DNA of 64,000 nucleotides from an uncultured Planctomycetota bacterium (GTDB taxonomy: Bacteria > Planctomycetota > Brocadiia > CAIUPP01), in assembly GCA_903901045.1 (NCBI GenBank), contig CAIUPP010000061.1:38374-102373 (forward strand). The letters run 5' to 3'. Position numbers and translations under genes: made by a program. This document shows positions 7,331 to 24,107 of the stretch, in pieces; the stretch's first letter is position 1, and the number at the start of each line of letters is the position of its first letter. The notes beneath the pieces were generated by a model, which saw only the letters and a list, made by a program, of their open reading frames with translations, made no database searches and was not told the origin of the DNA.

Positions 7331-8134
7331 CTACGGCGTTGCTTTCTCCGCCGGTTTCGCCTCAGATGGCTTCTGGCGCGTCTGCTGCTCCGGCGTGGCG
7401 GGGGGCAGGCGGCTGGCCGAGAGCATGCTGATCAGCGCTTCGGTTATGTCGCGCGGCGCCAGCGACTCCGGGAACTTCAGTTTGAAGTCGTTGGGGTCTA
7501 TGGCGATCCCGGAGCGAACGTCGGAGTAGGTCACTTTCAGAAATGTCGCGCCGTTCGGGTCGTCCAACTCGACGTGCCGCACCATGCCATCGGCCGGGCA
7601 GAGCCAGAAGCGCACCTTCGCCGGCTCGGGGAGCCAGAGCGCGACATTGGCCGGGAGCGAGAGCCGCCCCCGCGGCAGGTCCGCCTGGTAGCGCGTCACG
7701 GCGATGCCATCCAGCGTCCCTTCCCCCAGGCTGACGGCGCGCCCGTCGGTGAGCAGGCTGCGGTAAGCGCGGGGGTCGTAGGTGAGGACCGGGTCGTACC
7801 CCGGCATCGCCTTGTGCACGCGCTCCAGGTCCACCGTCACCGCGCGACGCCCGTCGGGCCCTTGCTCGATCTGCCGGACCATGAGCCCGTCGCTGGCGAT
7901 GGTCAATGTGCTTTGCTGCTCCTTGGGACTGCTGAGCGTCATCGTCCCTTCCACGCGGAACTGGCGGTCGCCGAGGAATTTGGCCTGGTAGTCCGTCGCG
8001 GCGTTCAGCTTGCCCACCGTCATTTCCTGGCGGATGCGCGCGGTGAAGCCGGTCGCATCCGCCGGCGCGGCGGAGGCCACGCACGCAAGCCCCATCATCA
8101 GCCCGGCGGCATAAAGGAACCCTCGCGGCCTCAT
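7331..8134 (-). CDS. secreted hypothetical protein (signal peptide; possibly LolA-like fold), last gene of tad-associated cluster
   Basis: N-terminal MRPRGFLYAAGLMMGLACVASAAPA signal peptide. No confident family assignment. Confidence 0.45.
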   Translation of the reverse strand: MRPRGFLYAAGLMMGLACVASAAPADATGFTARIRQEMTVGKLNAATDYQAKFLGDRQFRVEGTMTLSSPKEQQSTLTIASDGLMVRQIEQGPDGRRAVTVDLERVHKAMPGYDPVLTYDPRAYRSLLTDGRAVSLGEGTLDGIAVTRYQADLPRGRLSLPANVALWLPEPAKVRFWLCPADGMVRHVELDDPNGATFLKVTYSDVRSGIAIDPNDFKLKFPESLAPRDITEALISMLSASRLPPATPEQQTRQKPSEAKPAEKATP

Positions 8135-10197
8135 GGCTGCTTATCCTCCGGCGGAGCGGTCGGCTTCTTGCCGAGCCGCAGTTGCAGGTTGAAAATGTCC
8201 ACTTGCACCTTGTGGGAATAGGGGTGGTCGTTCGGCAGCCGGTCCGCCACGGTCAGCAGGATCTGCAGGGCGGTCTGCGGGTCGTCTTTGACCATGTTGA
8301 GGGCGCGGTTGTAATCCACGATGGCGTCATCTTCCATCTTCTTGATCCGGGCGGGCGCATTGCGGTTGGTGGGGTCCAGGAAGATCGCCTGCTGGTACTT
8401 GCGCCGCGCGGTGAGGTAGTCGTTCTGGAGCAGCGCCTTGTCCCCGGCGTCGACCAACTGCGTGGCGGCGGCCCCCTTCTTCGCGCTCAGGGCGGCCAGG
8501 TTGGCCTTTGCCTCGGCGGCGTAGTGGTTGGACTCCGGCTTCTCATAGCGGAGGACTTCGTTGAATTTGTCCTGGGCGGTCCCGAACTCCAAATCCTTGA
8601 GCGCCGCGAGGGCGGCGTCATGCGCGGCGACGACCTGCTTGATCCGCTGCACTTTCTCCGGATCGGCCTTCGGCAGCGTGGCGAGAATCTCAAGCGCCTT
8701 GGGGCCGTCCCCGGCGTTGTAGGCCGCGTCGGCCTGCTTGATGAGATCCTTCGCGTGGGCGACGGCCAGCAGGCCGGCTGCCTCTTTGGCGTAAGGGCTG
8801 TCCGGGGGAATGTCCGTCAGGGCGTCCACGGCGCGCCCCGGCGCGCCCGCGTCCGTCTCGGCGCGCGCGGCTTCGACCTTCTTGCGCTGCTCCTCGTACC
8901 GCCGGTACTGCGCGATCTTCGGTTCGAGCTCCCCGGCCAATGCGGGGGAGGCGCCGGCGAGTTGCTTCATCGAGGCGATGGCGTCGGACCAGTTCTGCGC
9001 GGCGGCCTGGTCGGCGGCGACCTTCTTCAGTTGGGTGATCGACTCCTCGAGAATCGCGGGCACGTCCTTGTAGAATGCGCTGTTCTCCCTGACCTGCCGG
9101 GCATACGTCAGCGCCTTGAGGAAATCGCGGCGCTCCATCGCTTGTTTCGCTTCGGTGAGGCTCGCCATGGATTCGGTCTCGTCGCGGATCCAGAGCAGCC
9201 GCGCTTCGGCCAGGAGCTTGGCGGAGGGGACGCCGCCGCTTTCGGCGGAGCGCTGCACGTCGGCCCAGCGTTTCTTGGCCTCCTCGAACTTCTCTTCAAA
9301 GGCGCGGCGCGCTTCGGCGTCGGCCTTGAACGCGACCAGGAGCAGGCTCGGCAGTTCCGTGCGCGTCTGCATCGGCATTTTGCTCAGCCGTTCGAGTTGC
9401 TGCGCGGCGTTCTCGGTGCGCCCCTCCTGGTACTCCTTCACGGCGCCGGCCATCATCTCCCGGTAGGCCGTCAGCGAGAGCGACTGGGGCCCTTTCTTCG
9501 CCGGCAGGAACAACGCGAGCGCCCCCAGCAGAACGGCCATCAGAAGCGCGCCGATCAGCAGAATCTTCAGTTTGCGGCTGCGCGGGGAAGCGCCGAGGGG
9601 CGCCCCTTCCACCGGCGCGGCGCGGCCCGATTCCTCGCGGCGCGTGACGACGGCCGGCAGCACGACGGGCGCCGCGTCCCCGGCGGGCGCGGCGGAGGGA
9701 ACCACTTCGACCTCGGCCCCGGTGGTGGTATCGCGCACGTACCAGCGGCCGTCGCGGACGATCATCTCCGTCCCGGCTCCTTCGCCGCCGGCGGCGGACT
9801 GGGCGAGGCTCTCATCGGCCGGGGTGGGGGCGTCGTCGGCCTGGAAATCCGGGGCGTCCGGGACGCGGCGCTCCAGTTCGGCGGAGCCGACTTCCAGCGG
9901 GCGCGTGTCCGAAGGCTCATCCTGGTCGAAGCGCATCCAGACGTTGCCCGCGCGCAGGCGCATCCCCGGCTGGAGGCGCGCTTCGTGAATGCGCTGCTGC
10001 CCGATGAAGGTGCCGTTCTTGGTCTCGAGGTCGCGCACGGTAAGCTGCTGGCCGGACAACTCCAGCTCCAGGTGGCGGCGGGAGAGGCTCCCCTCCGGGT
10101 AGCAGATGTCGCAGCCGGGGTCGCGCCCGACGACGCTGATCCCCTCCGGCAGGCGGAACTCGCGCCGCTTTCCCTTGCATTCGATGATGATCCGCAC
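8131..10197 (-). CDS. FHA-domain protein with TM segment and C-terminal TPR repeats
   Basis: N-terminal FHA motifs (GRDPGCDI...LSRRHLEL...RDLETKNGTF), a mid-protein hydrophobic helix, then a TPR-like Ala/Leu-rich C-terminus. Confidence 0.7.
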   Translation of the reverse strand: MRIIIECKGKRREFRLPEGISVVGRDPGCDICYPEGSLSRRHLELELSGQQLTVRDLETKNGTFIGQQRIHEARLQPGMRLRAGNVWMRFDQDEPSDTRPLEVGSAELERRVPDAPDFQADDAPTPADESLAQSAAGGEGAGTEMIVRDGRWYVRDTTTGAEVEVVPSAAPAGDAAPVVLPAVVTRREESGRAAPVEGAPLGASPRSRKLKILLIGALLMAVLLGALALFLPAKKGPQSLSLTAYREMMAGAVKEYQEGRTENAAQQLERLSKMPMQTRTELPSLLLVAFKADAEARRAFEEKFEEAKKRWADVQRSAESGGVPSAKLLAEARLLWIRDETESMASLTEAKQAMERRDFLKALTYARQVRENSAFYKDVPAILEESITQLKKVAADQAAAQNWSDAIASMKQLAGASPALAGELEPKIAQYRRYEEQRKKVEAARAETDAGAPGRAVDALTDIPPDSPYAKEAAGLLAVAHAKDLIKQADAAYNAGDGPKALEILATLPKADPEKVQRIKQVVAAHDAALAALKDLEFGTAQDKFNEVLRYEKPESNHYAAEAKANLAALSAKKGAAATQLVDAGDKALLQNDYLTARRKYQQAIFLDPTNRNAPARIKKMEDDAIVDYNRALNMVKDDPQTALQILLTVADRLPNDHPYSHKVQVDIFNLQLRLGKKPTAPPEDKQP

Positions 10198-10207
10198 GGC
10201 GGCCTCC

Positions 10208-11443
10208 TCACTTCCTCTTCGTCATTTGCGGCAGAAAGATGCTCTGCAACAGCGCGCGCACCTTCTGGTTGCGCCAGTCATTCTCATCCGGGATCAGCTT
10301 GAGCGCTTCCTCCAGCAACTGCCCCTCGCGCGCCGCGTCGTGGTTGCTCAGCGCCACGCGAATCTCGCCGGCGATCTTCTCCCACTTCGCATCCACCGCG
10401 GTCTTCGCCGCGATCAGCCCCCGGCTGGCCGCTAGGTAATCCTCCCCCTTGGTCAGCTTGGAAAGCACCGCCAGCGCGCATTCGTACTGCTGCTGCGCCA
10501 GGTAGGGGCGTTCCGCCTGAAGCGCGCGCCCCGACTCGACATAGTAATGCGCGCGCGCGCGGCGTTCCACGTCGCTGAGCTGGGCGTAGGTGAGGTCGTC
10601 CAGCGAGTTCTCGATCCGGCCGCGCACGAGGACGCGCATGACGCCTATCGTTCCGTCCTCTTTAGTGATCTTGACGTCCGCCTCCCCGCCGCTGACGCCG
10701 GAGACGACGTATTCCCAGGGATCGTCCAGCTTGGTCACTTGGACAATCTGGTCCGGGCTGACCTCAAGCGTGGCGATCGCCGGCCGCTTATTGCCATCCT
10801 TATCCGCCTTCGAAATGGAAAGCCAGCGGTTCTCGCCCACGCGGATGAGAATGGTGGGTATCTGGATTACGCCGCTGCTGGTGTCCTTATTCCTTCCGAG
10901 GATGAGCGCGCTGACGCCGACGGCCAGCAGCAGGCCCACGACCGCGGCGATCAGCAGCTTCACGTTGAGCTTGGCGCTGCCGCCTCCCTGCGTGGCGGCG
11001 GGGGAGGGCGCGGCCTGGCCCGTCCCCGGCGTCACCGGCTGCCAGCCGGCCGGGATGGCCGGCGCGCGCGACGGGGCGACGGCGGTCGAAGGCGCTCCCT
11101 TCTGCGGCGCGCTCCCCGGCGCTGAAGCGCCGATGATCTCAAAGCGCATCTCGATATCGCCCACGGTGAACAGGTCGCCGTTCTCCAGGATCGATTCGCG
11201 CACGGGATTGCCCCCGACGGTGATCCCGTTGCGGCTGTCCAGGTCGCGCAGGACGAAATGCCCCTTCTCCTCGGTGATCCGCGCATGCTGGCGGCTGATC
11301 GAAGCCTGGTCCAGGATGATCTCGCATTCCGGGTTGCGCCCGATGGTGGCGACGGGGCCGGTGAGGATGAAGCTGCGCCCCTGCAACGGAGGGGTCAGGA
11401 TCGTCAGGCGCGGGCGTCCGGTTCCGGATGAAGTCGCGCTCAT
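10208..11443 (-). CDS. FHA-domain membrane protein
   Basis: N-terminal FHA (GRNPECEIILDQASISRQHARI...RDLDSRNGI) and one TM helix (LLIAAVVGLLLAVGVSALIL). Confidence 0.7.
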   Translation of the reverse strand: MSATSSGTGRPRLTILTPPLQGRSFILTGPVATIGRNPECEIILDQASISRQHARITEEKGHFVLRDLDSRNGITVGGNPVRESILENGDLFTVGDIEMRFEIIGASAPGSAPQKGAPSTAVAPSRAPAIPAGWQPVTPGTGQAAPSPAATQGGGSAKLNVKLLIAAVVGLLLAVGVSALILGRNKDTSSGVIQIPTILIRVGENRWLSISKADKDGNKRPAIATLEVSPDQIVQVTKLDDPWEYVVSGVSGGEADVKITKEDGTIGVMRVLVRGRIENSLDDLTYAQLSDVERRARAHYYVESGRALQAERPYLAQQQYECALAVLSKLTKGEDYLAASRGLIAAKTAVDAKWEKIAGEIRVALSNHDAAREGQLLEEALKLIPDENDWRNQKVRALLQSIFLPQMTKRK

Positions 11444-11790
11444 GCAGACTCCTCAAGTCGCAAAGCGTCGCCGGGCATCAGCCCGACGCCGTCCAGGGCC
11501 CCGGCGGGCAATTCCAGCACGCACCGGGCGCCCCAGCAGGAGGCCAGCCGCCAGGGCTTCAGGCCAGGCGTCACTTTGCGCACCACCCAATCATCGTCCA
11601 GAAAGACCGCGTCGATCGCAAACCGCATGAAGAAAGTATGGATGCTCGCGCAGCGCTCGATCAACATGCCGCCGCCGGGGGGCAGACCGTCGCGCCCCAG
11701 CAGCCCGCGCATGCGCGCCGCCGTCGTCCGCGCTATCTCCACCCGGTCCGCAAGCACGCGGCCCGTGCGACTGTGGACCAATTTTACCAT
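11440..11790 (-). CDS. DUF192 (COG1430) family protein
   Basis: MVKLVHSRTGRVLADRVEIARTTAARMRGLLGR...MLIERCASIHTFFMRFAIDAVFLD matches DUF192. ATG at 11790. Confidence 0.65.
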   Translation of the reverse strand: MVKLVHSRTGRVLADRVEIARTTAARMRGLLGRDGLPPGGGMLIERCASIHTFFMRFAIDAVFLDDDWVVRKVTPGLKPWRLASCWGARCVLELPAGALDGVGLMPGDALRLEESA

Positions 11791-11792
11791 AG

Positions 11793-12310
11793 AATTGATA
11801 AGTGATGAGTGATGAATGTTGATTGATAATTGGTCATTGTTCGGCCTATTCCTGGCAAGACGTGACTGTGCGCACGGGGGCCCGATAGTTCGCCGTCTTC
11901 GAAGAGGCAACGCAGATCGCCGTCAACTCACCGACTTCCCGCAAGAGGCCCTCCATGCGTTTGGCCGGAATCATTTCAGCCGCCGCAATCAGGCGCAGCC
12001 AGTACTGGGCCTCGCGCAATTCTTTGACGACGATCTGCAGCTTGTGCGCAAAATCTCTCTTGCTCTCCGCGCCGCACGCTTCGCTGTAATTTGCCCCCGC
12101 AGAAGTGGCCGCGCGGAAAAGCTGAAGACTTACGTGCTGCGCCAGCGATGTTTTCGGCAGGGCCGAGGCAAGTCCGTAGGTTCGCGCGCCGAATCGAAGG
12201 AACCTCTCGCACAACTCCCTGCTATTCATCATCCCCTCGCCAACATGATAATTGTCGTTCTCCTGCTCCAATTATCAATCATCACTTATCACTCATCCAT
12301 TATCAATTCT
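11793..12310. repeat. cassette A: four-helix-bundle gene bracketed by ~40-bp inverted repeats made of tandem heptamers (GTGATGA/TTGATAA units)
   Basis: Left arm AATTGATAAGTGATGAGTGATGAATGTTGATTGATAATTG (~11793-11836). The reverse complement of the right arm (~12270-12310) is GAATTGATAATGGATGAGTGATAAGTGATGATTGATAATTG. Confidence 0.8.
11846..12232 (-). CDS. four-helix-bundle protein, '23S rRNA intervening-sequence protein' family (TIGR02436/PF05635-like), copy A
   Basis: Family core ATSAGANYSEACGAESKRDFAHKLQIVVKELREAQYWLRL; paralogous to copies B-D. Confidence 0.8.
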   Translation of the reverse strand: MMNSRELCERFLRFGARTYGLASALPKTSLAQHVSLQLFRAATSAGANYSEACGAESKRDFAHKLQIVVKELREAQYWLRLIAAAEMIPAKRMEGLLREVGELTAICVASSKTANYRAPVRTVTSCQE

Positions 12311-12311: not shown

Positions 12312-13241
12312 TTATCTCGTCATCAATTTAAGAACAATCGGCCCGAAGATCATGATGAAAATCGTGGGGAAAATGAACAGGATGAGGGGCAGAAGGATCT
12401 TGACCGGCGCTTCCATCGCGAGCTTCTCGGCAGTCTGGCTGCGGCGCGTGCGCATCTGGTCGGCCTGGATGCGCAGGATCGGGCCGAGGCTGGAGCCGAG
12501 CTCGTCGGCCTGGATCAGCGCACTGACCACGCTGTTGAGTTCGGAAGCGTCCACGCGGCGGCTCAGTTCGCGCAACGCCTGCGCGCGCGTGCGGCCCAGC
12601 TGGATGTCGCGCACCGTCTGCCCCAGTTCCACCCCGAGCGGCCCGGGGCCGAGTTTCTTCACGATGCGCGCGAGCGCCTGCGTGAAGTCCAGCCCGGCCT
12701 CGACCGAGAGGGTGAGCAGGTCCAGCGCGTAGGGGAGCCCGCGGCGGATTTCGTCGCGGCGCGCTTTCACCCGCGAACGCAGCCAGAGCAGCGGCATGTA
12801 CATGCCGCCGAGGGCGAAGATGAGAATGATCGCGTTGAAGTTCATCCGGAGGTTGAACAGCGCTCCCAGGAGCCCCCCGCAAATCCCCCCCAGCAGCACC
12901 ATCCCGAGGAACTCGTCGGCGCTGACCCCTTCCGGGTAGGAGGCGCTGCGCAGTTGTTTTTCGGCCCAGATGCGAGGGGCGAGCAGGAAGGACTTCTCCG
13001 CCGGCCGGCCCGTGGCCATTTCGACGCGCGCCGAGACCCTCGCCAGCACGAACGAGAGCGCCCGCGCGGGGGGCCGCAGCAGCTTGAACAGCGGCGAGGA
13101 GGCCGGCCGCCCCAGGCTGCGGTACTGCCGCGCCTCGGCGCGGGCCCCCATCAGGGTGCGCGCCAGCGTATACGCCAGGAGCGCCACGCTCGTCCCCGCG
13201 CACAGCGCCAGCAGCATCGTCTGCAGCGATCCGTCTTCCAT
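12312..13241 (-). CDS. tadC: Flp pilus assembly protein TadC (T2SS-F domain)
   Basis: ATG at 13241 (MEDGSLQTMLLALCAG...). GspF-like domain and TM helices. Confidence 0.85.
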   Translation of the reverse strand: MEDGSLQTMLLALCAGTSVALLAYTLARTLMGARAEARQYRSLGRPASSPLFKLLRPPARALSFVLARVSARVEMATGRPAEKSFLLAPRIWAEKQLRSASYPEGVSADEFLGMVLLGGICGGLLGALFNLRMNFNAIILIFALGGMYMPLLWLRSRVKARRDEIRRGLPYALDLLTLSVEAGLDFTQALARIVKKLGPGPLGVELGQTVRDIQLGRTRAQALRELSRRVDASELNSVVSALIQADELGSSLGPILRIQADQMRTRRSQTAEKLAMEAPVKILLPLILFIFPTIFIMIFGPIVLKLMTR

Positions 13242-13246: not shown

Positions 13247-14119
13247 TCACACCTTGATCGAAACGATTCGCCAGATCATGAACACTCCGATCGCCTCCAT
13301 CACCACCACGCCCGCCATCATCAGCCAGCCGAGCCAGTGCGTGAACATGGGCCGCATGAGCTCCGGGCTCCAGGCGTTCAGCGCCAGGAAAATCAGCACC
13401 GGCAGCAGGCCGATGATCACCCCCTGCATTTTCCCCTGCGCGGTCAGCGAGGAGATCTTCCCCTGGATGCGGTGGCGGTCGCGGATGGTGTCGGCGATGT
13501 TGTCGAACACCTCGGCGAGGTTCCCGCCCACCTCGCGGCTGATGAGGATGGAGGTGATGAGAATGTCCAGGTCCTCGCCCGGCATGCGGTCGAGCAGGTG
13601 CTGGAGCGCGTCCTCCATCGTGACGCCCAGGCGCATCTCCTGCACCATCAGGCGCATCTCCTGCCCCATCGGGTTCTCCGTCTCGCGCGCAATCAGCTCG
13701 AACGCCGCCGGCAGGCTGTGGCCCGCGCGCAGACTGTTGCCCATCGCCACCAGCGCGTCCTCCAACTGCACGCCGAACTTCTTGTCCCGCCGCCACTTGA
13801 GGAAGCGCACGATGATGGTGGGGGTCGCGAACGCCGCGATCCCCACGAAAATCGCCAGCACGACGTTCAACGTCATGACGGCGAAAATAATGAACACGAC
13901 CAGCGTGGAAAGGAAAGAGAGGTAGAGGATCTGCTGGACTGTCATGGTCAGGTACATTGCGTCGAGGGTGCGCGTGGCGCCGGAGACGTACTTCTCCTCG
14001 TAGGTCTTGAACCCCTTGGAGAGGAACGCCATCAGCCCGTACATCAGCAGCACGACGGCGAAGAACGCCGCGCCGAGGGTCACCACCGTCCAGGCCTGAC
14101 TCAGTTGGCCGGGGTTCAT
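13247..14119 (-). CDS. tadB: Flp pilus assembly protein TadB (T2SS-F domain)
   Basis: 290 aa polytopic protein with GspF-like domain, adjacent to tadC and cpaF. Confidence 0.85.
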   Translation of the reverse strand: MNPGQLSQAWTVVTLGAAFFAVVLLMYGLMAFLSKGFKTYEEKYVSGATRTLDAMYLTMTVQQILYLSFLSTLVVFIIFAVMTLNVVLAIFVGIAAFATPTIIVRFLKWRRDKKFGVQLEDALVAMGNSLRAGHSLPAAFELIARETENPMGQEMRLMVQEMRLGVTMEDALQHLLDRMPGEDLDILITSILISREVGGNLAEVFDNIADTIRDRHRIQGKISSLTAQGKMQGVIIGLLPVLIFLALNAWSPELMRPMFTHWLGWLMMAGVVVMEAIGVFMIWRIVSIKV

Positions 14120-14120: not shown

Positions 14121-15755
14121 TCATTCCTCCACCGGCTTGAACAGTGCCAGGTCCACCGGCACGCCGCGCTCGCGCAGCTCCTGCACGAACTTCGGGATTG
14201 CGCCGGTGGCCGTCATCACCCCCAGCACGCGGCCATGCTCGTCGTATCCCTTCTGTCGGAACTCGAAGATCGGCTGCATGATGACCGTGTCCTGCTCCAT
14301 GCCGGTGATCTCGGAGATGTTGGTGATCTTGCGCGTGCCGTCCGGCAGGCGCGCGCCGTGGACGATGAGGCTGATGGCGGCGGTGATCTGCTCGCGGATG
14401 GCGCGGCTGGGCAGATCGAGGCCGGCCATGAGCACGAGCGTTTCCAGGCGCGCCAGGACGTCGCGCGGGCTGTTCGCGTGGAGCGTGGTGAGCGAGCCAT
14501 CGTGGCCGGTGTTCATGGCCTGGAGCATGTCGAGCGCCTCGCCGCCGCGGCACTCGCCGACGACGATCCGGTCGGGCCGCATGCGCAGGGCGTTGATGAC
14601 GAGCTTTCGGATCGGCACCTCCCCCTTCCCCTCGATGCTGGGGGGCTTGCTTTCCAGGCTGATCACATGCTCCTGCGCGAGTTGCAGTTCGGCGGCATCC
14701 TCAATGGTGATGATGCGCTCGGTCGATGGAATGAAGCCGCTGAGGATGTTCAAGAGGGTGGTCTTGCCCGAGCCGGTGCCGCCGCTGATGACGGCGTTCT
14801 TGCGGTTGACCACGCCGATCTGAAGGAAATCGGCCATCGCCTGCGAGAGCGAGCCGAAGCGGATGAGGTCGGTGGTGGTGAACGGGGTGCGCGCGAATTT
14901 GCGGATGGTGAGCGTGGGGCCGGTGAGCGCCAGCGGCGGGATGATGGCGTTCACGCGCGAGCCGTCGGCCAGGCGCGCGTCCACCATGGGGCTGGACTCA
15001 TCCACGCGCCGCCCGATGGGCGCCAGGATGCGCCGGATGACCGCCAGAAGCTGCTCGTTGCTGGTGAAGCGCTTGTCGGTCAGCTCCAGCCGGCCATGCC
15101 GCTCGATGTAGATCTTGTCCCAGCCGTTGACCATCACTTCGTCCACGGAATCGTCGGCCAGGAAATCCTCCAGCGCGCCCAGCGCGATGGCCTCGTCCAC
15201 GACCTCCTTGACCAGCGCCTCCGAGGTGAGCCAGGAGGGGCGCTCCGAGGCGAACTTGGCGACGGCGGCGCGGGCGGCGACCGAGGTTTTGCCCCGCACT
15301 TCCTCCGTGGTCTTCTCCGTCAGGTCGGTGTGCTTGAGGTCGAGAGAGGCGAGGATTTCATCATGGATCTTCTTCTTCAGTTCGACCGGCGTGCGGCGGT
15401 CCGGGCCGAGGCGGGGATGTTTCGCGGAACTGGGCGGCTTGCCCACCGCTTCGGGGGCGGCCTCGCCGGCATGGAAGGTGAGCGTGAACGGCCCGATGCG
15501 AATGACGTTGCGCTCCCCCAGCGGCGCCTGCCCGATCACCTTGGCGCTGTTGAGGAAGGTGCCGTTGCGGCTGCCCAGGTCGTGCAGCACGTAGGCCTTG
15601 TCCTCGTAAGCGACGATGCAATGCTCGCGAGAGATGCTGGGGTGGTCGAGCACGAGGTGGTTGACGCCGGCCTTCTTGCCGATCTTGAAGGGCAGCGGGT
15701 CCAGCGGAACGCTGCGCGCGGAGCCGCTTTCGTCTCGCAGGATCAGTACCGCCAT
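14121..15755 (-). CDS. cpaF: CpaF/TadA secretion ATPase with N-terminal FHA domain fusion
   Basis: FHA N-terminus (IGKKAGVNHLVLDHPSISREHCIV...LHDLGSRNGTFLN), then Walker A (GGTGSGKTT) and VirB11/CpaF motifs. Confidence 0.9.
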   Translation of the reverse strand: MAVLILRDESGSARSVPLDPLPFKIGKKAGVNHLVLDHPSISREHCIVAYEDKAYVLHDLGSRNGTFLNSAKVIGQAPLGERNVIRIGPFTLTFHAGEAAPEAVGKPPSSAKHPRLGPDRRTPVELKKKIHDEILASLDLKHTDLTEKTTEEVRGKTSVAARAAVAKFASERPSWLTSEALVKEVVDEAIALGALEDFLADDSVDEVMVNGWDKIYIERHGRLELTDKRFTSNEQLLAVIRRILAPIGRRVDESSPMVDARLADGSRVNAIIPPLALTGPTLTIRKFARTPFTTTDLIRFGSLSQAMADFLQIGVVNRKNAVISGGTGSGKTTLLNILSGFIPSTERIITIEDAAELQLAQEHVISLESKPPSIEGKGEVPIRKLVINALRMRPDRIVVGECRGGEALDMLQAMNTGHDGSLTTLHANSPRDVLARLETLVLMAGLDLPSRAIREQITAAISLIVHGARLPDGTRKITNISEITGMEQDTVIMQPIFEFRQKGYDEHGRVLGVMTATGAIPKFVQELRERGVPVDLALFKPVEE

Positions 15756-16727: not shown

Positions 16728-17233
16728 TGCATTTCCTCCTTGGGGCCCGCTGCGGCGGGACCCCGGTTGGGGACGGAGGCCTGGCGCATGAGGGTGACGG
16801 CTGAGCCGCCTCCTGCGCCCGCCTCGACGATGCTTATGATACACCAACTGCCGGTAGGGTCTGCAAATGTCAGGGGCATCCCGCCGGGCTCCTCCATCAT
16901 GCCCGGCAAGCGTTGCGTTGTCCAGCCCCGCGCGGGCATTTCATGCCTGTAGAACTCCGCGACCGCGTCGGCGGACTCGCGGCTGACGTAGCGAACCAAT
17001 ACGCGCCCCGAGCCCGGCGCGGAGTTCAGGATGCCGGCCAGTTGCGATTCCGGCGGCGCGGGGATGTTCTCCAGCGCCCGCCCCGCCCTGCCCGTTGCCC
17101 CGCGCTCCACAATTGCGGGCAATAATCCGTAATGGCCGATGGCGAAAGACAAGGCTACGATAAGCCCGGCGCCTGCAAGACGGAAAACGATTTCTGACTT
17201 CTGATTCCTGAATTCTGATTTCTGATTTGCCAT
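16724..17233 (-). CDS. hypothetical small membrane protein; N-terminus (MANQKSEFRNQKSEI) encoded by heptamer-repeat arm
   Basis: 169 aa with one TM helix. Overlaps cpaB start by 4 nt. The first 15 codons are the TTCTGAT tandem repeat. Confidence 0.4.
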   Translation of the reverse strand: MANQKSEFRNQKSEIVFRLAGAGLIVALSFAIGHYGLLPAIVERGATGRAGRALENIPAPPESQLAGILNSAPGSGRVLVRYVSRESADAVAEFYRHEMPARGWTTQRLPGMMEEPGGMPLTFADPTGSWCIISIVEAGAGGGSAVTLMRQASVPNRGPAAAGPKEEMQ

Positions 17234-17702
17234 GTTTCACATGCTACGTTGACAATTCGTCCTGTCTGAGTGAGTCCGCATTCTTCCGCGACTTGTACGT
17301 GGTGACCGCGGCGACGAAGATACGGATCAACTGGTCTGCCTCGTCGAGCATCCCGGTCAGACGCTTTGCGGGCAAGAGTCCGGCTTCGGCTATCAGCCGC
17401 AGCCAATACTCGCTCTCGCGCAATTCCTTCAAAGATATCTGCATCTTGTGAAGGAAATCCTGGCGGCTTTCCGCCCCTGACGCCTCACAGTAGTTTGCCC
17501 CGGCGGAGGTGGCGGCCCGCATGAGTTGAAGGCCGACATGCCGCCCCGTGGCCGACTTGGTCAGCGCATTTGCCACATGAATACTTCGGACTCCGAATTG
17601 CAGCAGCCTCCGGTTCAAGTCGTGCTTGTCCATGCTGTGCGCTCCCGATGAAACCTCACACTGCTCTCCGCCCGAGGCACAAATCAGAACTCAGAAATCG
17701 TT
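17186..17702. repeat. cassette B: four-helix-bundle gene bracketed by inverted heptamer-repeat arms (TTCTGAT units)
   Basis: Left arm CGATTTCTGACTTCTGATTCCTGAATTCTGATTTCTGATTTG. Right arm reverse complement is AACGATTTCTGAGTTCTGATTTGTG (shorter arm). Confidence 0.75.
17244..17633 (-). CDS. four-helix-bundle protein, 23S-IVS-protein family, copy B
   Basis: Family core ATSAGANYCEASGAESRQDFLHKMQISLKELRESEYWLRL. Confidence 0.8.
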   Translation of the reverse strand: MDKHDLNRRLLQFGVRSIHVANALTKSATGRHVGLQLMRAATSAGANYCEASGAESRQDFLHKMQISLKELRESEYWLRLIAEAGLLPAKRLTGMLDEADQLIRIFVAAVTTYKSRKNADSLRQDELST

Positions 17703-18721
17703 TACCACCGTTTCCAAAGATTCTGCGTCGCATCATTCACCGCGGGCAGCGCGACGGCGCCAAGCAGGTCGGCGGCCTCTCCCAGCACCGCGGCGGAGGT
17801 GTGCCCTTGCTCGCCGGCGGCCAGCCGCGTTCCATTCCCCGTGACGTGGCCGGTCAGGTCCATCGTGAACTCCCACTGCGGGCGGCTCGTGGGGTTGGGG
17901 TACGTGCCGGTGATGTAATTTCCCAGCGTGGTGGGCGCCTCGTCCGTTGCCCGGAAGACGGAGGGGAAGTAGGGGGGGCTGTACGTGGCGCGCAGGTCCG
18001 CGTGGCGACGTTCGAGCCAGTGCGTGCCGCCGACGCCGTCGAAGGCGGATGCGATCCAGGCGGTGGTGTTGTCGATGACCGGCGGAGTGGCCTCGTCGGC
18101 GGTTACGAACCCGCCGCCGAGCTCCACTCCACCAGCTAGAGGGTTCAAGTAATGTGCGGGGGAAAATTTGTCGCCATATTCCGTATTCGAGACTTCCGTG
18201 ATCCCCTTGACCGCGTCCCAGACGAAGCTCTGCGTGGTCACCCCCAGCGCGTAATTCCAGAGGCTGACGGCAAGCCGCTCGCGGTCGAACGTGTCCGGCT
18301 GGCCGCCCCCCATCAGGGGGCCGGTCGTCAATTGGGTGGGGATTTCCTGGCGGTAATAGTCGTCGAGCTGGCTTGAGAGCTCGGACGCCTCCAGCGTCAG
18401 GTCTCCCTGGGCGGCCGCCGTCTGGCCGCCGCTGACGGGGCGGACATTGTCCGGCGTCCCCCCGCCGGAGGGCCAGAGCTTCATCAGCAACAGGTCCGCC
18501 GGCTGAGCCGTGGGCATCCAGACGGCAAACGTCGCCGCCTTGACGGCGCGCTGCCGGGTCAGCGTCGCATAGCCGAAGTAAAGCACCCCCAGCACGATCA
18601 GCATGTACAGCGGCATGACCAGCGCGGTTTCGACCATCGCCGTTCCGCGGAGCGAACGACAACGGCGAGCGTAGAGTGTAGAGTGCAGAGTGATGAGTGT
18701 AGAGCTATTCATTTTTCTCAT
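17702..18721 (-). CDS. tadE: TadE/TadG-like pseudopilin with long repeat-encoded leader
   Basis: Contains RGTAMVETALVMPLYMLIVLGVL (class-III signal / TadE-like N-terminus). Leader residues STLITLHSTLY are encoded by the GTAGAGT repeat arm. Confidence 0.7.
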   Translation of the reverse strand: MRKMNSSTLITLHSTLYARRCRSLRGTAMVETALVMPLYMLIVLGVLYFGYATLTRQRAVKAATFAVWMPTAQPADLLLMKLWPSGGGTPDNVRPVSGGQTAAAQGDLTLEASELSSQLDDYYRQEIPTQLTTGPLMGGGQPDTFDRERLAVSLWNYALGVTTQSFVWDAVKGITEVSNTEYGDKFSPAHYLNPLAGGVELGGGFVTADEATPPVIDNTTAWIASAFDGVGGTHWLERRHADLRATYSPPYFPSVFRATDEAPTTLGNYITGTYPNPTSRPQWEFTMDLTGHVTGNGTRLAAGEQGHTSAAVLGEAADLLGAVALPAVNDATQNLWKRW

Positions 18722-19167
18722 GGGCCATGTTCCTCTTCACAGTTACGACAGATCGGACCGCCATGGCGGTTAACTCACTGCATTCCCGCAAGGCGCCGTC
18801 GAGTTGTGCCGGCGGCAACAAACGGCTCTCCCTGGCAAGAGTCAGCCAGTAGTCCGTTTCGCGCAGTTCTTTGATGACAACCTGCAGCTTATGCACGAAA
18901 TCCGCACGGCTCTCAGCGCCCTTTGCCTCCCTGTAATTTGCCCCAGCCGACGTGCCCGACCGTAGCACCTGCTTGGCAATCACTCTGCCAGCCATGGTCT
19001 TGGGCATAGCCTGCGTAAGGCGAATCACCTCGATAGCGTAGGCCAGCAGGCGCTTGTCCAGCATGCCCTCACGTTCTGCCATCGCCATAACTCCCCGCTC
19101 AGGTCCTTGTCCTCGTCCTTGTTCACTCTGCATTCATCGCTCTGCACTCTACACTCTACGCTCGCCG
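18665..19167. repeat. cassette C: four-helix-bundle gene bracketed by inverted heptamer-repeat arms (GTAGAGT units)
   Basis: Left arm GGCGAGCGTAGAGTGTAGAGTGCAGAGTGATGAGTGTAGAGC. Right arm reverse complement is GGCGAGCGTAGAGTGTAGAGTGCAGAGCGATGAATGCAGAGTGA. Confidence 0.8.
18705..19088 (-). CDS. four-helix-bundle protein, 23S-IVS-protein family, copy C
   Basis: Family core RSGTSAGANYREAKGAESRADFVHKLQVVIKELRETDYWLTL. The 3' end overlaps the tadE-like start by 17 nt. Confidence 0.8.
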   Translation of the reverse strand: MAMAEREGMLDKRLLAYAIEVIRLTQAMPKTMAGRVIAKQVLRSGTSAGANYREAKGAESRADFVHKLQVVIKELRETDYWLTLARESRLLPPAQLDGALRECSELTAMAVRSVVTVKRNMAHEKNE

Positions 19168-21738
19168 TTAATGTTCCACCACATCGCTCATCTGCCTATT
19201 CCCATAGTCGAGAACCGGCGTGATCGGCTTGCCGTACTCGTCGCGGCGCTGGCTCATCTGGCGCATCTTGAGGGCGATGCTGGGGTCTCCCTGCCCGTTG
19301 AATTGGGTGGCCCAGCCGCTTGAATCGTAGCCGGAGGCGAACTGCGCGCTGAGCACCGTATCCCACAGGTAGGAGAGGGCGTTTTCGGTTTCGAGCGTGA
19401 TCGCCTGCCCCTGAATGATCTCGTCATCCAGGTCGTAATCCTGCATCTGATCGCGCGAGGGATAGAGCTTTGCCGTCGCGCCCGCCATGTACAGATTGTT
19501 CGGGTCCTGCTCGACCCAGTTTGCTCGATCCGCCTTGCCGCCGAACTGGTACCGCGTTCCGCCGCCGTCGTCCGGAACGCCCACGCGCGAGCAGGAGATG
19601 GCGACGTACCCCCAGGGCGGCTGTAGCGCCTGCGGGAAGAGCATGGGGAGGTCGGGTTGCTTGTAGACTCCGACATTGACGCCATACTTGAAGAACTCAT
19701 CCGTCAGCACCAAGGGGTATCCGGCCGGTGCCGCGGGGGCGTTGCGGAGAATGTAGGAATCGTACCGGTGAACGCGGCTGTCCAGAAAGTCGGTGTCCGT
19801 CCATCCACGCTGACCGTCGGTGATGGACAGATCATAGGAGCGCGGGTCCGGCGGGTTGATGCGACCGGAGGGGATATCCGCGATGAAGACCCGGATATCC
19901 GTGGCCCCGTCGCGGTTGTTATCGTAACCGCCGCAGACTTTACATACTTCCTTGTGCGTCCCCTGGTTGGGATCATTGGGATCGTTGGGGACATCCACAA
20001 CGCCGCTCCCGCCGCAGCCCAAGGGAGGCTCCGGGCAGGGCTCCGTCTGGTAGTAGGCGTCCTCCGGAGGGTCCTCATTGGGCTGGAGGATCGCCAGGCT
20101 GCCGGGCGGACGCAGCGGATAGGTGTGCCGCCAGAACGGCTCGCGGGGACCCGCCGTGCCCGTATTGTCCGGGATCGGATTGAACCAGGCCGTCCACGCC
20201 GGCAGTTGGTTCCCGGAGATGCCGCGGTCGCCGAAGGCATGGGTGTAGACGTACCGATTCATATTCCTTTCGCGGGACAGCATCGCCCCGGAGGTCTCGT
20301 GATCGTATTGCCATTGCTTGAGTCCACCGTGCTCCGGGACCACTTCGGTAAGCTGCTGGCGCGACCAGACCTGCTCGGTCGGGTCGAACCACTTGCGCCA
20401 GCGGCCGTCCGCGTCACCGGCGGTGAGGCTGAACCCGCCCGCCGTGACGCTGAAGGAGTTCGGGTCGAAGCCGTGGACGCCGATCGTGACCGGGCCCAGA
20501 GTGGTCGAGATGGTCGGGGGGTCGCTCAAGGTCAAATGGGCGTGGCCGATGGTGACCTGGGTGGGGTCCCCGATGGTCGCGCTGGCGTCGCCGGGGAAGT
20601 GGATAACGTTGGTGACGTTCATCCGCACTTCCACCCCGGCGATCGTGGTCGTGTTGCTGGTCATGTCGGTGTAGGAGTGCGCGGCGTTGTCCCAGAGGTA
20701 CAGGTGGCCGTTGCCCGCGTTCTTGAAAGTCTGGGAAAGGTTGCCGCAGGTGACTTTCGTCCCCTCCTTGGTCCCGTCGCCGTCCATGTCCACTTTCTCG
20801 AAGGAGATAGTCGGCAGGGAGGGGCCGCCGTTCGCGGCCTGTCCCCAGACCACCCAGCCGAGGTCGTCGGTCTTGACCAGGTAAATCTCCTCGGTCAGCG
20901 CCCCGTTGGTGTAGAAGCTGATCTTCCAGCGGTTGGGGGATTCCTGGCTGATGATCACCTCGGTTTCGGTGACCCCTTCCAGGGAGTACAGGATGTGCCA
21001 CTGCCCGTCCACCAGCGTCACCTGGATCATCTCCTTGCTGCCGCCGGTGAGGTTGGTGACGCGCCAGCCGTTGCCCAGTTGCTCGATGCTGAAAGAGATG
21101 AGACTCTCCGGGTAAGGGAAGAGCCGCTGGCTGGGGAAGACGCTGAGGCGCTCTCCGCCGGCGCGCGTGCCGATGGCGAACATCTCCTCGGCGAGCAGGC
21201 GCGGGGTGAGGATGGCGACGGCGTTCTCCGTCTGCGAGAGCTGCACCATCAGGCTCTTGGCCTGCGGCAGGGCGGTGTTGGCGAGGTCCCATGCCTGCCG
21301 GTGCGCCATGACGGCCGGGCCGGAGGCAACGCCGCCGGTGCGGATCAGTTCCATGCGCGCGGCGACGCCGGTGACGTTCACATCCACGGCATACTTCAGC
21401 GAGTTGTAGTACGTCTGCGCCATGGCGCTGTTGATCCAGCCGATGGCGCTCAGGCTGTTCGCTTCCACCATCGCGCCGGAGTACGCCGCCGAGTCCGCCG
21501 CCACCTGCACCCGCGTGCGCCCCTCGATGATCCGCCCCAGGTTGTACACCAGCGCCACGAACCCCACCAGCACGATCAGGCTCGCCGCGGCGAAGATAAT
21601 CCCCTGGCCGCGCTCGTCGCGCAGGAAACGGCGAAAACTGAGAACTGAGAACTGGGAACTGAAAGTTGCGAAAGAACGGCCCCTCCGCGCCATAGCGCGG
21701 TGGACCGGAATCGGCTCGTTATTCTTGCATGCACTCAT
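19168..21738 (-). CDS. tadG: large TadG-like pilus-assembly/pseudopilin protein (856 aa)
   Basis: N-terminal RRFLRDERGQGIIFAAASLIVLVGFVALVYNLG (TadG N-terminal domain type). The leader contains repeat-encoded FSSQFSVLSF. Confidence 0.65.
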   Translation of the reverse strand: MSACKNNEPIPVHRAMARRGRSFATFSSQFSVLSFRRFLRDERGQGIIFAAASLIVLVGFVALVYNLGRIIEGRTRVQVAADSAAYSGAMVEANSLSAIGWINSAMAQTYYNSLKYAVDVNVTGVAARMELIRTGGVASGPAVMAHRQAWDLANTALPQAKSLMVQLSQTENAVAILTPRLLAEEMFAIGTRAGGERLSVFPSQRLFPYPESLISFSIEQLGNGWRVTNLTGGSKEMIQVTLVDGQWHILYSLEGVTETEVIISQESPNRWKISFYTNGALTEEIYLVKTDDLGWVVWGQAANGGPSLPTISFEKVDMDGDGTKEGTKVTCGNLSQTFKNAGNGHLYLWDNAAHSYTDMTSNTTTIAGVEVRMNVTNVIHFPGDASATIGDPTQVTIGHAHLTLSDPPTISTTLGPVTIGVHGFDPNSFSVTAGGFSLTAGDADGRWRKWFDPTEQVWSRQQLTEVVPEHGGLKQWQYDHETSGAMLSRERNMNRYVYTHAFGDRGISGNQLPAWTAWFNPIPDNTGTAGPREPFWRHTYPLRPPGSLAILQPNEDPPEDAYYQTEPCPEPPLGCGGSGVVDVPNDPNDPNQGTHKEVCKVCGGYDNNRDGATDIRVFIADIPSGRINPPDPRSYDLSITDGQRGWTDTDFLDSRVHRYDSYILRNAPAAPAGYPLVLTDEFFKYGVNVGVYKQPDLPMLFPQALQPPWGYVAISCSRVGVPDDGGGTRYQFGGKADRANWVEQDPNNLYMAGATAKLYPSRDQMQDYDLDDEIIQGQAITLETENALSYLWDTVLSAQFASGYDSSGWATQFNGQGDPSIALKMRQMSQRRDEYGKPITPVLDYGNRQMSDVVEH

Positions 21739-21815
21739 GGTATTGTTACCTCAATCTCAACATCGCGCCATCTTTCAGTTCTCAGTCTTCAGTCTTCAGT
21801 CTTCAATTCTCGCCG
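21630..21815. repeat. 'empty' heptamer inverted-repeat pair (GAGAACT units) whose ~105-bp loop holds only the tadE-stop/tadG-start junction
   Basis: Left arm GGCGAAAACTGAGAACTGAGAACTGGGAACTGAAAG. Right arm reverse complement is GGCGAGAATTGAAGACTGAAGACTGAAGACTGAGAACTGAAA. Confidence 0.7.
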
Positions 21816-21822: not shown

Positions 21823-22407
21823 TCACTCGCCCCACGGATGCGCCAGCACGCAACTGCCGGTCATCAGCCAGTGCGCCGCGCCTCCCCACTTCGAGCGGTC
21901 CACGTCGAGGCCGGGGGTCAGGTCGCCCAGCGCGTAGAGGGCGTCGCCGGCGATTGGCACATTCAATTCGTAGTCATGCGATACGTCGGCGTGGATCACC
22001 GGCTGGCCGTTGACCGAATCGGGGTAGACGTTGACGTCGGTCTTCAGTTCCGCCGCGGCGCTGCCGGGGAGCGTCCCCCAGCCGGGCAGGGTGATGGTGT
22101 CGTTGGCGACGACGCCGGAAGTTCCCGTGATGCGGCTCAGCGGGATCAGCGCCGCGCGCTTGCAGGCGGTCGGGTCGATCGCCGGCGACTGCGCCAGCCC
22201 CGCGCGCGCCGCGCAAAAAGCGCTGTACTCGATCACCTGCTGCGCGATGAACAGATGGGCCAGTTGAATGATGACCAGCGTGATCAGCAGTTGGAGCGGG
22301 AAGATGATGGCGTATTCAACCAGCGCCTGCCCCGACTCCGCGCGGGCGGCGCGGCGAGAACTGAAAACTGAGAACTGAAAACTGAGAACTGAGAGTTGGC
22401 GGTTCAT
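21823..22407 (-). CDS. tadE: TadE-like pseudopilin
   Basis: RRAARAESGQALVEYAIIFPLQLLITLVIIQ is a TadE N-terminus. Leader MNRQLSVLSFQFSVFSS is encoded by the repeat arm. Confidence 0.75.
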   Translation of the reverse strand: MNRQLSVLSFQFSVFSSRRAARAESGQALVEYAIIFPLQLLITLVIIQLAHLFIAQQVIEYSAFCAARAGLAQSPAIDPTACKRAALIPLSRITGTSGVVANDTITLPGWGTLPGSAAAELKTDVNVYPDSVNGQPVIHADVSHDYELNVPIAGDALYALGDLTPGLDVDRSKWGGAAHWLMTGSCVLAHPWGE

Positions 22408-22824
22408 CGCGCAGCTCCTTTGTTCGACTTCGCCGTCACCACGGACTTCACGCCTATGGAGATCAGTTCATTCACCTCACTGGCAATGCCGTCCAGGCGA
22501 GCCGGCTTCAACAAATGGGCGTTGCGGCAAAGCTCAATCCAATAGAGCGTCTCGCGCAGTTCTTTCACTACAATCTGCATCTTGTGCGCAAAGTCGGCGC
22601 GACTCTCGGCGCATCTCGCCTCGCAGTAGTTGGCGCCAGGCGACGTGCCGGATCGCAGCAATTGCAGTCCCACATGCCGCCCCGCCGCCGTCTTGGGCAG
22701 CGCGTTCGTCATCGCGATGACCCTCACGGCCAGTTCTTGCAGGCGCTCACCATAATTGCCGCTCTGCGCCACGTTTTATCCTCTCAGTTCTCAGTCTTCA
22801 GTTCTCAGTTTTCAGTTCTCGCCG
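22353..22824. repeat. cassette D: four-helix-bundle gene bracketed by inverted heptamer-repeat arms (GAGAACT units)
   Basis: Left arm GGCGAGAACTGAAAACTGAGAACTGAAAACTGAGAACTGAGAG. Right arm reverse complement is GGCGAGAACTGAAAACTGAGAACTGAAGACTGAGAACTGA. Confidence 0.8.
22404..22772 (-). CDS. four-helix-bundle protein, 23S-IVS-protein family, copy D
   Basis: Family core RSGTSPGANYCEARCAESRADFAHKMQIVVKELRETLYWIEL. GTG start. Confidence 0.8.
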   Translation of the reverse strand: MAQSGNYGERLQELAVRVIAMTNALPKTAAGRHVGLQLLRSGTSPGANYCEARCAESRADFAHKMQIVVKELRETLYWIELCRNAHLLKPARLDGIASEVNELISIGVKSVVTAKSNKGAAR

Positions 22825-23374: not shown

Positions 23375-23406
23375 AGATCAACCCACCTCAATGTTCCTGC
23401 GATAAT

Positions 23407-23603: not shown

Positions 23604-23852
23604 TCAGAACGTATTGACGTTCTTTCCAGAAGTGGCGGTGTCCGCCTCGCTGCTCTTGTCCTGAACGGTCTGTTCCGTGCCGGTGCCGATCCGCTTGACT
23701 TCGCTGCCGAACAGCGCTCGGATCTGGTCCCCGAAGATCAGGATCACGGCGATGGAGCTGACCGCCACGAGCGCGACGATGATCGCGTACTCGGCCGTCG
23801 TCTGTCCCTTCCGGCTCTTCAACCCGCTCACCTTCATAATCCACTGACGCAT
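23604..23852 (-). CDS. flp: Flp/Fap pilin
   Basis: Flp motif G|QTTAEYAIIVALVAV after a short basic leader. Confidence 0.8.
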   Translation of the reverse strand: MRQWIMKVSGLKSRKGQTTAEYAIIVALVAVSSIAVILIFGDQIRALFGSEVKRIGTGTEQTVQDKSSEADTATSGKNVNTF

Positions 23853-23885
23853 TTCAGTACCCTCCAAAAGTTAACTCTTAAGACC

Positions 23886-24107
23886 CTATGGAATCGGAAG
23901 ACAAATCAGCGACGCCACATCCTGAAAGAAGTTCAGCAGCGCCGCCTGCATCGCCTCGATGGAAACCATCACCACGATCACCGTCCAGAACGCCACCAGC
24001 GCGTACTCCGTGGCGGCCTGCCCGGTTTCGTTCCGGAGCAGCGCCGACGGGTCGGAGCGCAGGTGAAGCATGGTCAGCAACTCGTGCATGGTCTTCTCTA
24101 ACTCCAT
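23886..24107 (-). CDS. flp: Flp/Fap pilin (second copy)
   Basis: Flp motif G|QAATEYALVAFWTVIVV. Confidence 0.8.
   Translation of the reverse strand: MELEKTMHELLTMLHLRSDPSALLRNETGQAATEYALVAFWTVIVVMVSIEAMQAALLNFFQDVASLICLPIP

Follow-up and report, generated by a model that had tools for sequence, protein, structure and literature searches.

The stretch analysed here, a window of 64,000 nucleotides (64 kb; G+C ~66%) from an uncultured Planctomycetota bacterium, carries on its minus strand a row of tightly packed, co-directional genes running from position 24107 to position 7331, which includes a Tad/Flp (type IVc) pilus locus. We privilege the reading, which we hold to be probable but far from certain, that its products build a machine of the FHA-CpaF class to which the Kil system of Myxococcus belongs, with an FHA scaffold that docks the motor, and that four cassettes with a PF05635 gene (numbered 1 to 4 below) have settled at junctions between its genes. 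The order deduced from Pfam and NCBIfam is flp-flp-tadV-tadE-tadG-tadE-AF_1845-cpaB-FHA::cpaF-tadB-tadC-DUF192-FHA/TM-FHA/TM/TPR, where TM stands for a transmembrane segment. The genes of the row, followed by a pilin-like gene found elsewhere, are listed below; L-numbers designate loci used for comparison.

23886..24107, minus strand: Flp-type prepilin 1, 73 amino acids (Flp_Fap 18 bits, below the Pfam cutoff), with a GQAATEY motif and orthologues in L003-L005
23604..23852, minus strand: Flp-type prepilin 2, 82 amino acids, within ORF 23604-23867 (Flp_Fap 27 bits, below the Pfam cutoff), with GQTTAEYAIIVALVA kept in L003-L005
22826..23374, minus strand: TadV/CpaA prepilin peptidase, 182 amino acids (Peptidase_A24 46.5 bits)
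21823..22407, minus strand: TadE-like pseudopilin 1 (TadE 32 bits), its leader residues QLSVLSFQFSVFSS encoded by the 3' arm of cassette 1
19168..21738, minus strand: TadG-like large pseudopilin, 856 amino acids (Pfam Tad PF13400 37 bits, Tad/TadG-N), kept in L003, L004, L170 and L172
17702..18721, minus strand: TadE-like pseudopilin 2, 339 amino acids (TadE 36 bits), its leader encoded by an arm of cassette 2
16724..17233, minus strand: AF_1845 small bitopic membrane protein (PF27226), its N-terminus encoded by an arm of cassette 3
15861..16727, minus strand: CpaB/RcpC, within ORF 15861-16847 (RcpC 78 bits; TIGR03177 137 bits, above cutoff)
14121..15755, minus strand: FHA::CpaF motor ATPase, 544 amino acids, with FHA at residues 24-88 (60 bits), a linker and the ATPase at residues 132-537 (T2SSE 200 bits)
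13247..14119, minus strand: TadB platform protein (T2SSF 82 bits)
12312..13241, minus strand: TadC platform protein (T2SSF 73 bits)
11440..11790, minus strand: DUF192 protein (DUF192 75 bits)
10208..11443, minus strand: FHA/TM protein, 411 amino acids (FHA 67 bits), with a disordered linker, a transmembrane segment, a pil_N-like Ig domain and a five-helix domain
8131..10197, minus strand: FHA/TPR protein, 688 amino acids (FHA 57 bits), with a transmembrane segment and a long helical/TPR-like domain, of KilD-like architecture
7331..8134, minus strand: signal-peptide protein, 267 amino acids, lineage-specific
39841-40275, outside the tad locus: type IV pilin-like gene (N_methyl)

The combination of a CpaF/TadA ATPase, two T2SSF platform proteins, TadE/TadG pseudopilins and CpaB/RcpC identifies the locus as Tad/Flp (type IVc), and TadV is the dedicated A24 peptidase without a methylase domain expected of such systems. 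The Pfam gene calls agree with the annotation that exists for identical contigs of other metagenomes, which assigns the small membrane protein to AF_1845. The first-pass annotation of this DNA, made from the letters alone, had already proposed the operon and its order, and Pfam retrieves every gene it named where it had placed them, as well as the separate type IV pilin-like gene; its tadC is the ORF (open reading frame) at 12312-13241, ORF 12328-13203 being in the wrong frame. Its three FHA domains, one fused to CpaF and two on membrane proteins, are likewise borne out, each of the two membrane proteins having one hydrophobic segment after the FHA domain. It overlooked the four same-strand PF05635 genes and the inverted repeats that flank them, and it counted the 267-amino acid secreted protein as the last member of the operon. 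We reject this protein as a machine component since it is not conserved in relatives: it has no Pfam or NCBIfam match, its orthologue is missing from L003, L004, L170 and L172, and it is probably, to judge from this distribution, not part of the pilus machine. At the corresponding place after the tad cluster, L003 has a defence-like set of an AAA_15/AAA_21 ATPase and two WYL-domain regulators (17581-21302).

The 14-gene order from flp to the FHA/TPR gene is also found in L003 (~70% identity), L004 (63%), L170 (58%) and L172 (58-61%), so that the cluster is conserved across five planctomycete lineages; L005 and L171 keep part of it. The CpaF proteins of the four complete relatives are 58-72% identical to that of the window, and full-length homologues of the motor number in the hundreds (56-73% identity), almost all of them with an FHA domain, the few named ones belonging to Planctomycetes/Planctomycetota metagenome-assembled genomes. 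Its ATPase core (residues 132-537) matches the solved CpaF structure 9e24 at 405 bits; residues 1-131 have no counterpart in solved CpaF structures. The locus holds a complete inner-membrane and periplasmic Tad gene set with an FHA motor and two FHA bitopic proteins, conserved as a unit. Both Flp prepilins, whose genes are kept in four related loci, carry the G-x4-EY signature in the form GQ(A/T)(A/T)(T/A)EY. The two paralogues can be told apart by a C-terminal CLP(I/F/L)P (Cys-Leu-Pro-x-Pro), always present in paralogue 1 (window 23886-24107, L003 1762-1950, L004 2675-2872, L005 2910-3083) and absent from paralogue 2. In 37 of 80 unrelated tad loci, which come from many phyla, the gene after tadC is also DUF192, so that it is a frequent accessory of Tad systems.

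In classical Tad systems the ParA-like protein TadZ/CpaE positions and recruits the motor. No TadZ was detected in the window, where a hidden Markov model (HMM) built from 37 ORFs upstream of cpaF in other loci reaches at best E = 0.98 and the motif KGGxGx[ST] does not occur. An HMM for secretins, whose seed was the Citreicoccus inhibens orthologue of KilC (L026:8081-9847; Secretin 148 bits), detects them in 42 of the 80 loci of the GTDB cpaF comparison set (L008-L087) but none in the 64 kb, where its best match, 7.8 bits, falls on the FHA/TM protein because of the pil_N (PF13629)-like domain there. The translations of the window's ORFs were inspected, and Pfam covered those of the tad locus and ten further ones; no Secretin, ParA/TadZ-type, Pkinase or PP2C family was seen among them. 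Overlapping contigs extend the DNA beyond the window by ~6 kb to the right and ~9 kb to the left, and no Secretin, ParA/TadZ-type, kinase or PP2C family is found among the genes called there. The lack of secretin and TadZ reported by the first-pass annotation holds therefore also for the adjoining DNA, and the FHA domains of the membrane proteins, far from degenerate, keep their canonical residues (see below). L003, L004, L170, L172, L005 and L171 similarly have no Secretin, ParA-like gene, Pkinase or PP2C within 10 kb.

In the comparison of cpaF loci, 57 of the 58 non-FHA loci carry a gene that scores at least 40 bits with the TadZ model, nearly always directly upstream of cpaF, versus 2 of 25 FHA-type loci, in both of which it is weak and not adjacent to cpaF; Fisher's test gives p = 4e-17 but ignores phylogeny, and 5 of the 25 loci were assigned to the FHA type from tblastn coverage and not from an FHA match. 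Because of this contrast, the missing TadZ is a trait of the FHA-CpaF class at large and not a peculiarity of the window locus. A rough neighbour-joining tree of the ATPase cores, without support values, places all FHA-CpaF proteins in one large clade in which the planctomycete group adjoins Myxococcota, including the Citreicoccus KilF orthologue, and places the non-FHA CpaFs of Phycisphaerae elsewhere. The literature that could be searched, which is incomplete, ties neither the absence of TadZ to FHA-CpaF nor planctomycete CpaF to secretins, a weak sign of novelty.

The two membrane proteins have the residues that characterise phosphothreonine-binding FHA domains (GR, SxxH, NG): GR36, S50-R-Q-H53 and N72-G in the FHA/TM protein, GR, SRRH and NG in the FHA/TPR protein. 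Across 60 members of the FHA/TM family, G35, R36, S50, R51, H53 and S70 are each at least 90% conserved. The motor FHA has S42-R-E-H45 and N64-G65 invariant in 12 planctomycete sequences. The FHA domains of the membrane proteins, being N-terminal to the membrane segment, are presumably cytoplasmic.

The FHA/TM protein is modelled as an FHA domain (residues 10-104), a disordered linker (107-158), a transmembrane helix (160-184), an Ig-like β-sandwich (192-276) and a domain of five helices (281-410). The C-terminal part, once cropped, has a predicted local distance difference test score (pLDDT) of 86. Fold searches return FHA matches only with the full model and weak Ig-like/Big_2 matches only (PDB) with the cropped C-terminal module. 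A profile of this C-terminal part retrieves 135 clusters among 1.84 billion representatives, nearly all of ~400 amino acids with the module at the C-terminus; an FHA domain is present in 60 of the 60 members scanned and PF13629 is matched by 12 of the 60 (best E = 4e-8). PF13629, the 'pilus formation protein N-terminal' domain pil_N, is otherwise located at the N-terminus of CpaC-type secretins. From sequence and model together, the FHA/TM protein is assigned to a small family (~135 clusters) predicted to combine an FHA domain, a transmembrane segment, a secretin-N-like pil_N domain and a helical domain.

We propose that the two FHA membrane proteins act in place of TadZ as a membrane-anchored scaffold for docking and positioning the motor. 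Their FHA domains and that of the motor would bind phosphothreonines, probably on the long disordered linkers of their partners, which contain Thr and Ser, and these marks would be written by an unlinked Hanks-type kinase. Phosphorylation could then switch motor recruitment and hence pilus extension. On the other side of the membrane, presumably in the periplasm, CpaB and an outer-membrane conduit whose gene lies elsewhere would be contacted by two domains, the pil_N-like one in the FHA/TM protein and the helical/TPR one in the FHA/TPR protein. In this lineage the four PF05635 cassettes supply the start regions of tadE1, tadE2, AF_1845 and DUF192, whose expression is probably coupled to translation or processing of the cassettes.

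Several observations weigh against this proposal. The phosphate-contacting Arg of the motor FHA is replaced by an invariant Lys27 in 12 of the 12 aligned planctomycete sequences, the relative L047 has neither Lys nor Arg at that site, and the FHA domains of proteobacterial class III CpaFs are degenerate. FHA-like domains of SctD in type III secretion systems (T3SS) function without phosphothreonine. There is no Ser/Thr kinase or PP2C phosphatase in the window or in seven related loci, so that the FHA domains provide the only argument for kinase control. No outer-membrane conduit is identified, a secretin being found within 10 kb in none of the 8 planctomycete FHA-type loci versus 18 of the 21 other FHA-type loci. 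The C-terminus of the FHA/TPR protein aligns with those of KilD-like proteins at an hhalign probability of 32%, which leaves homology beyond the FHA domain unproven. To these are added the two limits of the TadZ comparison given above. The Ser/Thr-kinase control of pilus assembly put forward in the first-pass annotation is thus supported in part: the FHA domains themselves are borne out, canonical in the membrane proteins, but no kinase or PP2C is linked and the motor has Lys for the canonical Arg. Kinase control of the pilus is plausible on these sequence grounds.

Among the other readings, the FHA domains could be phospho-independent structural modules, as in SctD/PrgH of T3SS, forming a cytoplasmic ring that docks the ATPase without any kinase. 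We judge this rather unlikely. All three domains also match Yop-YscD_cpl in Pfam, the FHA/TM protein gives a weak match to the NCBIfam SctD model over FHA and transmembrane segment, the motor FHA is without the canonical Arg and neither kinase nor phosphatase is linked in any locus. Such a role does not account for the strong conservation of all phosphate-binding residues in the membrane proteins, and the modelled FHA fold of the FHA/TM protein is closest to the phosphothreonine readers GarA/OdhI (E = 3e-9, 33-35% identity, versus 21% for YscD). SctD/PrgH and the Myxococcus protein GltG resemble the window proteins in having an N-terminal FHA or FHA-like domain and a membrane segment in a trans-envelope machine. 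Weak NCBIfam matches link window proteins to the models of SctD/PrgH, of GltG and of TagH/Fha1 from type VI secretion systems (T6SS), which acts with PpkA/PppA. The likeness to all three is however confined to FHA with or without the transmembrane segment, the pil_N and helical module being specific to the ~135-cluster family, and the NCBIfam scan of the proteins without a family yields nothing beyond FHA.

The closest described system is Kil of Myxococcus xanthus, in which FHA proteins are, as its authors emphasise, over-represented (Seef et al. 2021, PMC8460266). Their table lists MXAN_3104 (FHA), KilF (FHA and ATPase), KilD (FHA and TPR), MXAN_4648 (FHA and TPR) and MXAN_4649 (FHA, 'PrgH-like'), the last two adjoining KilH, KilG and KilB (PMC8460266). 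The paper does not mention TadZ/CpaE, describes genes split over two distant clusters, states that a TadG-like protein is missing and cites the T6SS precedent (PMC8460266). The window locus shares with Kil the character of a Tad-derived machine with an FHA-fused CpaF motor (KilF). In domain architecture, though with no significant sequence similarity outside FHA, its FHA/TPR protein matches KilD and MXAN_4648, and its FHA/TM protein would correspond to MXAN_4649 beside platform genes and CpaB; the neighbourhood of MXAN_4648/4649 equals the cpaB-...-tadB-tadC-...-FHA/TM-FHA/TPR part of the window. A TadG-N protein and several pseudopilins are also common to both. The myxobacterial FHA-type loci L008 and L026 have no match to the TadZ HMM, and KilD-like proteins of Citreicoccus and of a Myxococcota metagenome-assembled genome carry a transmembrane segment after their FHA domains. 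L026, from Citreicoccus, has the layout of Kil cluster 1 (FHA protein, KilA, secretin, FHA::CpaF, protein with two FHA domains).

The differences are as clear. Kil has a linked short secretin, KilC, devoid of N0, and none is found in the window by an HMM seeded with a KilC orthologue; its genes form two clusters and not a single 14-gene operon; KilD has two FHA domains and the window FHA/TPR protein one; DUF192 is part of the window operon; and the motor FHA retains Arg in Kil, as in Myxococcota generally, in contrast to the Lys of the window. That the locus codes for a Kil-type apparatus for contact-dependent killing or prey recognition, whose FHA proteins trigger local assembly upon cell contact as in Myxococcus, agrees with the FHA component set, the gene neighbourhood and the CpaF clade adjoining Myxococcota KilF-like proteins. 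We find it improbable nonetheless: no KilC-like short secretin is linked, the window has the TadG-like protein said to be missing from Kil, and outside FHA the accessory proteins have no significant sequence similarity to Kil proteins.

A secretin-less machine, with a short filament held below the outer membrane as a piston or sensor, or with a non-secretin exit as in monoderm Tad systems, pil_N being the remnant of a lost secretin N-terminus, receives little credence from us: the count of 0/8 against 18/21, the linked secretin of the non-FHA Phycisphaerae loci L076, L085 and L086 and the fusion of pil_N, otherwise a domain of CpaC-type secretins, to an inner-membrane FHA protein speak for it, but CpaB, the partner of the secretin in classical systems, is kept, and a remote secretin is the simpler reading since Kil genes too are split over two distant clusters.

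The machine with an FHA scaffold docking its motor, which we continue to prefer, can also be compared with other known systems. The class III CpaF, or FHA-IDR-CpaF, where IDR is an intrinsically disordered region, is mostly found in Betaproteobacteria (PMC12019362). It has FHA, disordered linker and conserved CpaF core in the same order; the planctomycete motors differ by their hundreds of homologues and by FHA motifs better preserved than in the proteobacterial examples. With the classical Tad/Cpa loci (Aggregatibacter tad, Caulobacter cpa) the window shares Flp, TadV, TadE/TadG, CpaB/RcpC, CpaF/TadA and TadB/TadC, whereas these have TadZ/CpaE directly upstream of the motor gene, usually a linked secretin, and no FHA proteins. 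The FHA-CpaF fusion with accompanying FHA proteins is thus already published (PMC8460266, PMC12019362). What is new with respect to known relatives is a planctomycete system in a single conserved operon with no linked secretin, a family of scaffold proteins of the type FHA-TM-pil_N and a motor FHA with Lys in place of Arg.

The second element of the locus is the set of four PF05635/TIGR02436 genes ('four helix bundle', '23S rRNA IVS protein', IVS standing for intervening sequence), located on the same strand between tad genes and the only ones in the 64 kb. PF05635 is a large family which we take to include also the Avd proteins of diversity-generating retroelements and the ORF of rRNA intervening sequences. 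The cassettes and a related hairpin are:

22352..22824, minus strand: cassette 1, PF05635 gene 22404-22772, 44-nucleotide (nt) arms 98% complementary, 44 closing pairs, z = -11.5
18654..19176, minus strand: cassette 2, PF05635 ORF 18705-19133 with the gene at 18705-19082 inside 51-nt arms 88% complementary, 52 closing pairs
17182..17706, minus strand: cassette 3, PF05635 gene 17244-17633, 25-32-nt arms
11791..12310, minus strand: cassette 4, PF05635 ORF 11846-12271 with the gene at 11846-12229 inside 43-nt arms 88% complementary
21633..21804, minus strand: heptad hairpin without ORF, the TadG start codon in its loop, 33 closing pairs, z = -5.4

Every cassette has a separate inverted repeat at its ends, 25-51 nt long with 88-98% complementarity. 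RNA folding predicts that the two arms pair with each other and enclose the entire cassette (29-52 pairs, z from -3.5 to -11.5). Within the arms 7-nt units are repeated in arrays, GAGAACT/GAAAACT, GTAGAGT, GATAAGT or TCTGATT. The G+C content at third codon positions (GC3) of the cassettes is ~0.73 versus 0.85-0.92 for the neighbouring genes. The 5' arm starts 0-1 nt past the TAA stop codon of the upstream gene, 1 nt past that of tadV for cassette 1. At the other end the tadE1 ATG overlaps the stop codon of cassette 1 (ATGA), the tadE2 ATG lies 17 nt ahead of the stop codon of cassette 2, the AF_1845 ATG is just ahead of the 3' arm of cassette 3 and the DUF192 ATG is directly past that of cassette 4. 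As the arms overlap the start regions, some leader residues of the pseudopilins and part of the N-terminal end of AF_1845 are encoded by arm sequence.

L003 has an orthologous PF05635 cassette in the slot of cassette 2 and two ORF-less hairpins (~3007-3080 and ~8220-8300), one of them with TTTCTGA-type heptads in the slot of cassette 3; PF05635 genes are missing from the tad loci of L004, L005, L170 and L172. Given this distribution and the 46-57% mutual identity of the four window paralogues, the cassettes are long-standing residents specific to the lineage and do not belong to the pilus machine. Solo arms or hairpins of the same kind, without an ORF, lie in other spacers of the window (21633-21804, 6532-6680, 26303-26377, 25173-25222), from which it follows that the heptad hairpin exists with and without an ORF. 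Among them are TCCAACG units between a uvrC-like gene and usp, and AAGGAC/CAAGGAC repeats with 7-9-nt spacing upstream of 26394-28025. An Rfam scan of the whole window found just one tRNA and no rRNA, so that the hairpins cannot be assigned to any known family of RNAs. Another family of repeats, REP/MITE-like (repetitive extragenic palindrome/miniature inverted-repeat transposable element) and with core GCGGGTTATCCAACCCGCG, has copies in both orientations near the flp genes and the fumarase genes (23405-23460, 24407-24490, 24501-24549, 25273-25356). In L004, three junctions of the tad cluster hold a palindromic element of a different kind, its own (GTCATTGCGAG...).

The cassette organisation is not confined to this operon. 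A metagenome scan with five PF05635 sequences gave 80 diverse loci; a bracketing inverted repeat (score at least 16) is present in 49 of the 72 with adequate flanks and in none of the shuffled controls. The bracket is found in 45 of 63 unrelated metagenomic PF05635 genes versus 1 of 125 displaced windows from the same contigs (p = 2e-27), and the strongest self-similarity is at a 7-nt shift in 49 of 50 arms. Among 34 cassettes with long flanks, a co-directional upstream ORF ends at most 40 nt from the 5' arm in 22, and in 26 the 3' arm is where a downstream reading frame of the same direction opens. There is no signal of selection on the sense-strand RNA of the stems; with G:U-type mismatches numbering 83 and A:C-type ones 95, a role at the RNA level is not favoured over one at the DNA level.

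Intervening sequences of 23S rRNA are known in Leptospira and Coxiella. They similarly have a PF05635 ORF inside a long inverted-repeat terminal stem within a transcribed region. The window cassettes differ in being placed between protein-coding genes and in having arms made of 7-nt arrays that overlap start regions. TAACTGA heptamers form intergenic, tandem direct repeats directly upstream of start codons (MacGregor 2015, PMC4679880), and the GAACTGA and AAACTGA units of cassette 1 are closely related to them; that work, however, deals with direct repeats only, with no link to PF05635 and no inverted pairs. In the literature accessible to search, which is incomplete, we found no link between PF05635 and heptamer repeat arrays, inverted or not, in operons, again a weak sign of novelty.

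A broader reading, to which we give slightly less than an even chance, joins both elements: PF05635 cassettes would be a widespread, apparently undescribed class of operon-embedded elements and not passengers, and an FHA scaffold would replace TadZ across the FHA-CpaF class. Under its cassette rule an ORF for a four-helix bundle of the Avd/IVS family, bracketed by inverted heptanucleotide arrays, would insert flush between co-directional genes and capture the downstream translation start region. The cassettes of the window would segment or gate expression of tadE1, tadE2, AF_1845 and DUF192, and the PF05635 protein could plausibly recognise the heptad arrays.

Outside the tad locus, gyrB, dnaN and dnaA, read from translations only, follow each other on the minus strand (40452-46537), so the window probably includes the chromosomal origin region. 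ORF 49006-51249 encodes a 747-amino acid secreted protein in which a collagen triple-helix repeat is combined with a Peptidase_S74 (endosialidase chaperone) domain at the C-terminus, an architecture typical of phage tail fibres. The Schlafen/AlbA_2 and HATPase_c_4 protein encoded at 57647-59371 has a GC3 of 0.67, markedly below its neighbours, and its gene may have been acquired horizontally.

The kinase-control interpretation of the pilus locus is largely anticipated by the work on Kil and on class III CpaF, and the most novel material of the interval is the PF05635 heptad-hairpin cassettes. The pilus locus extends the FHA-type (Kil-like) Tad machines to Planctomycetota and leads to a testable rule, that FHA scaffold and TadZ are mutually exclusive, which bears on how motors are recruited without TadZ. 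It also raises the question of a 14-gene Tad cluster conserved in a diderm with no linked secretin. The cassettes tie PF05635, a large family of unknown function, to heptanucleotide arrays with strong and general statistics, and thereby make both this family and the long-puzzling heptamer repeats experimentally approachable.

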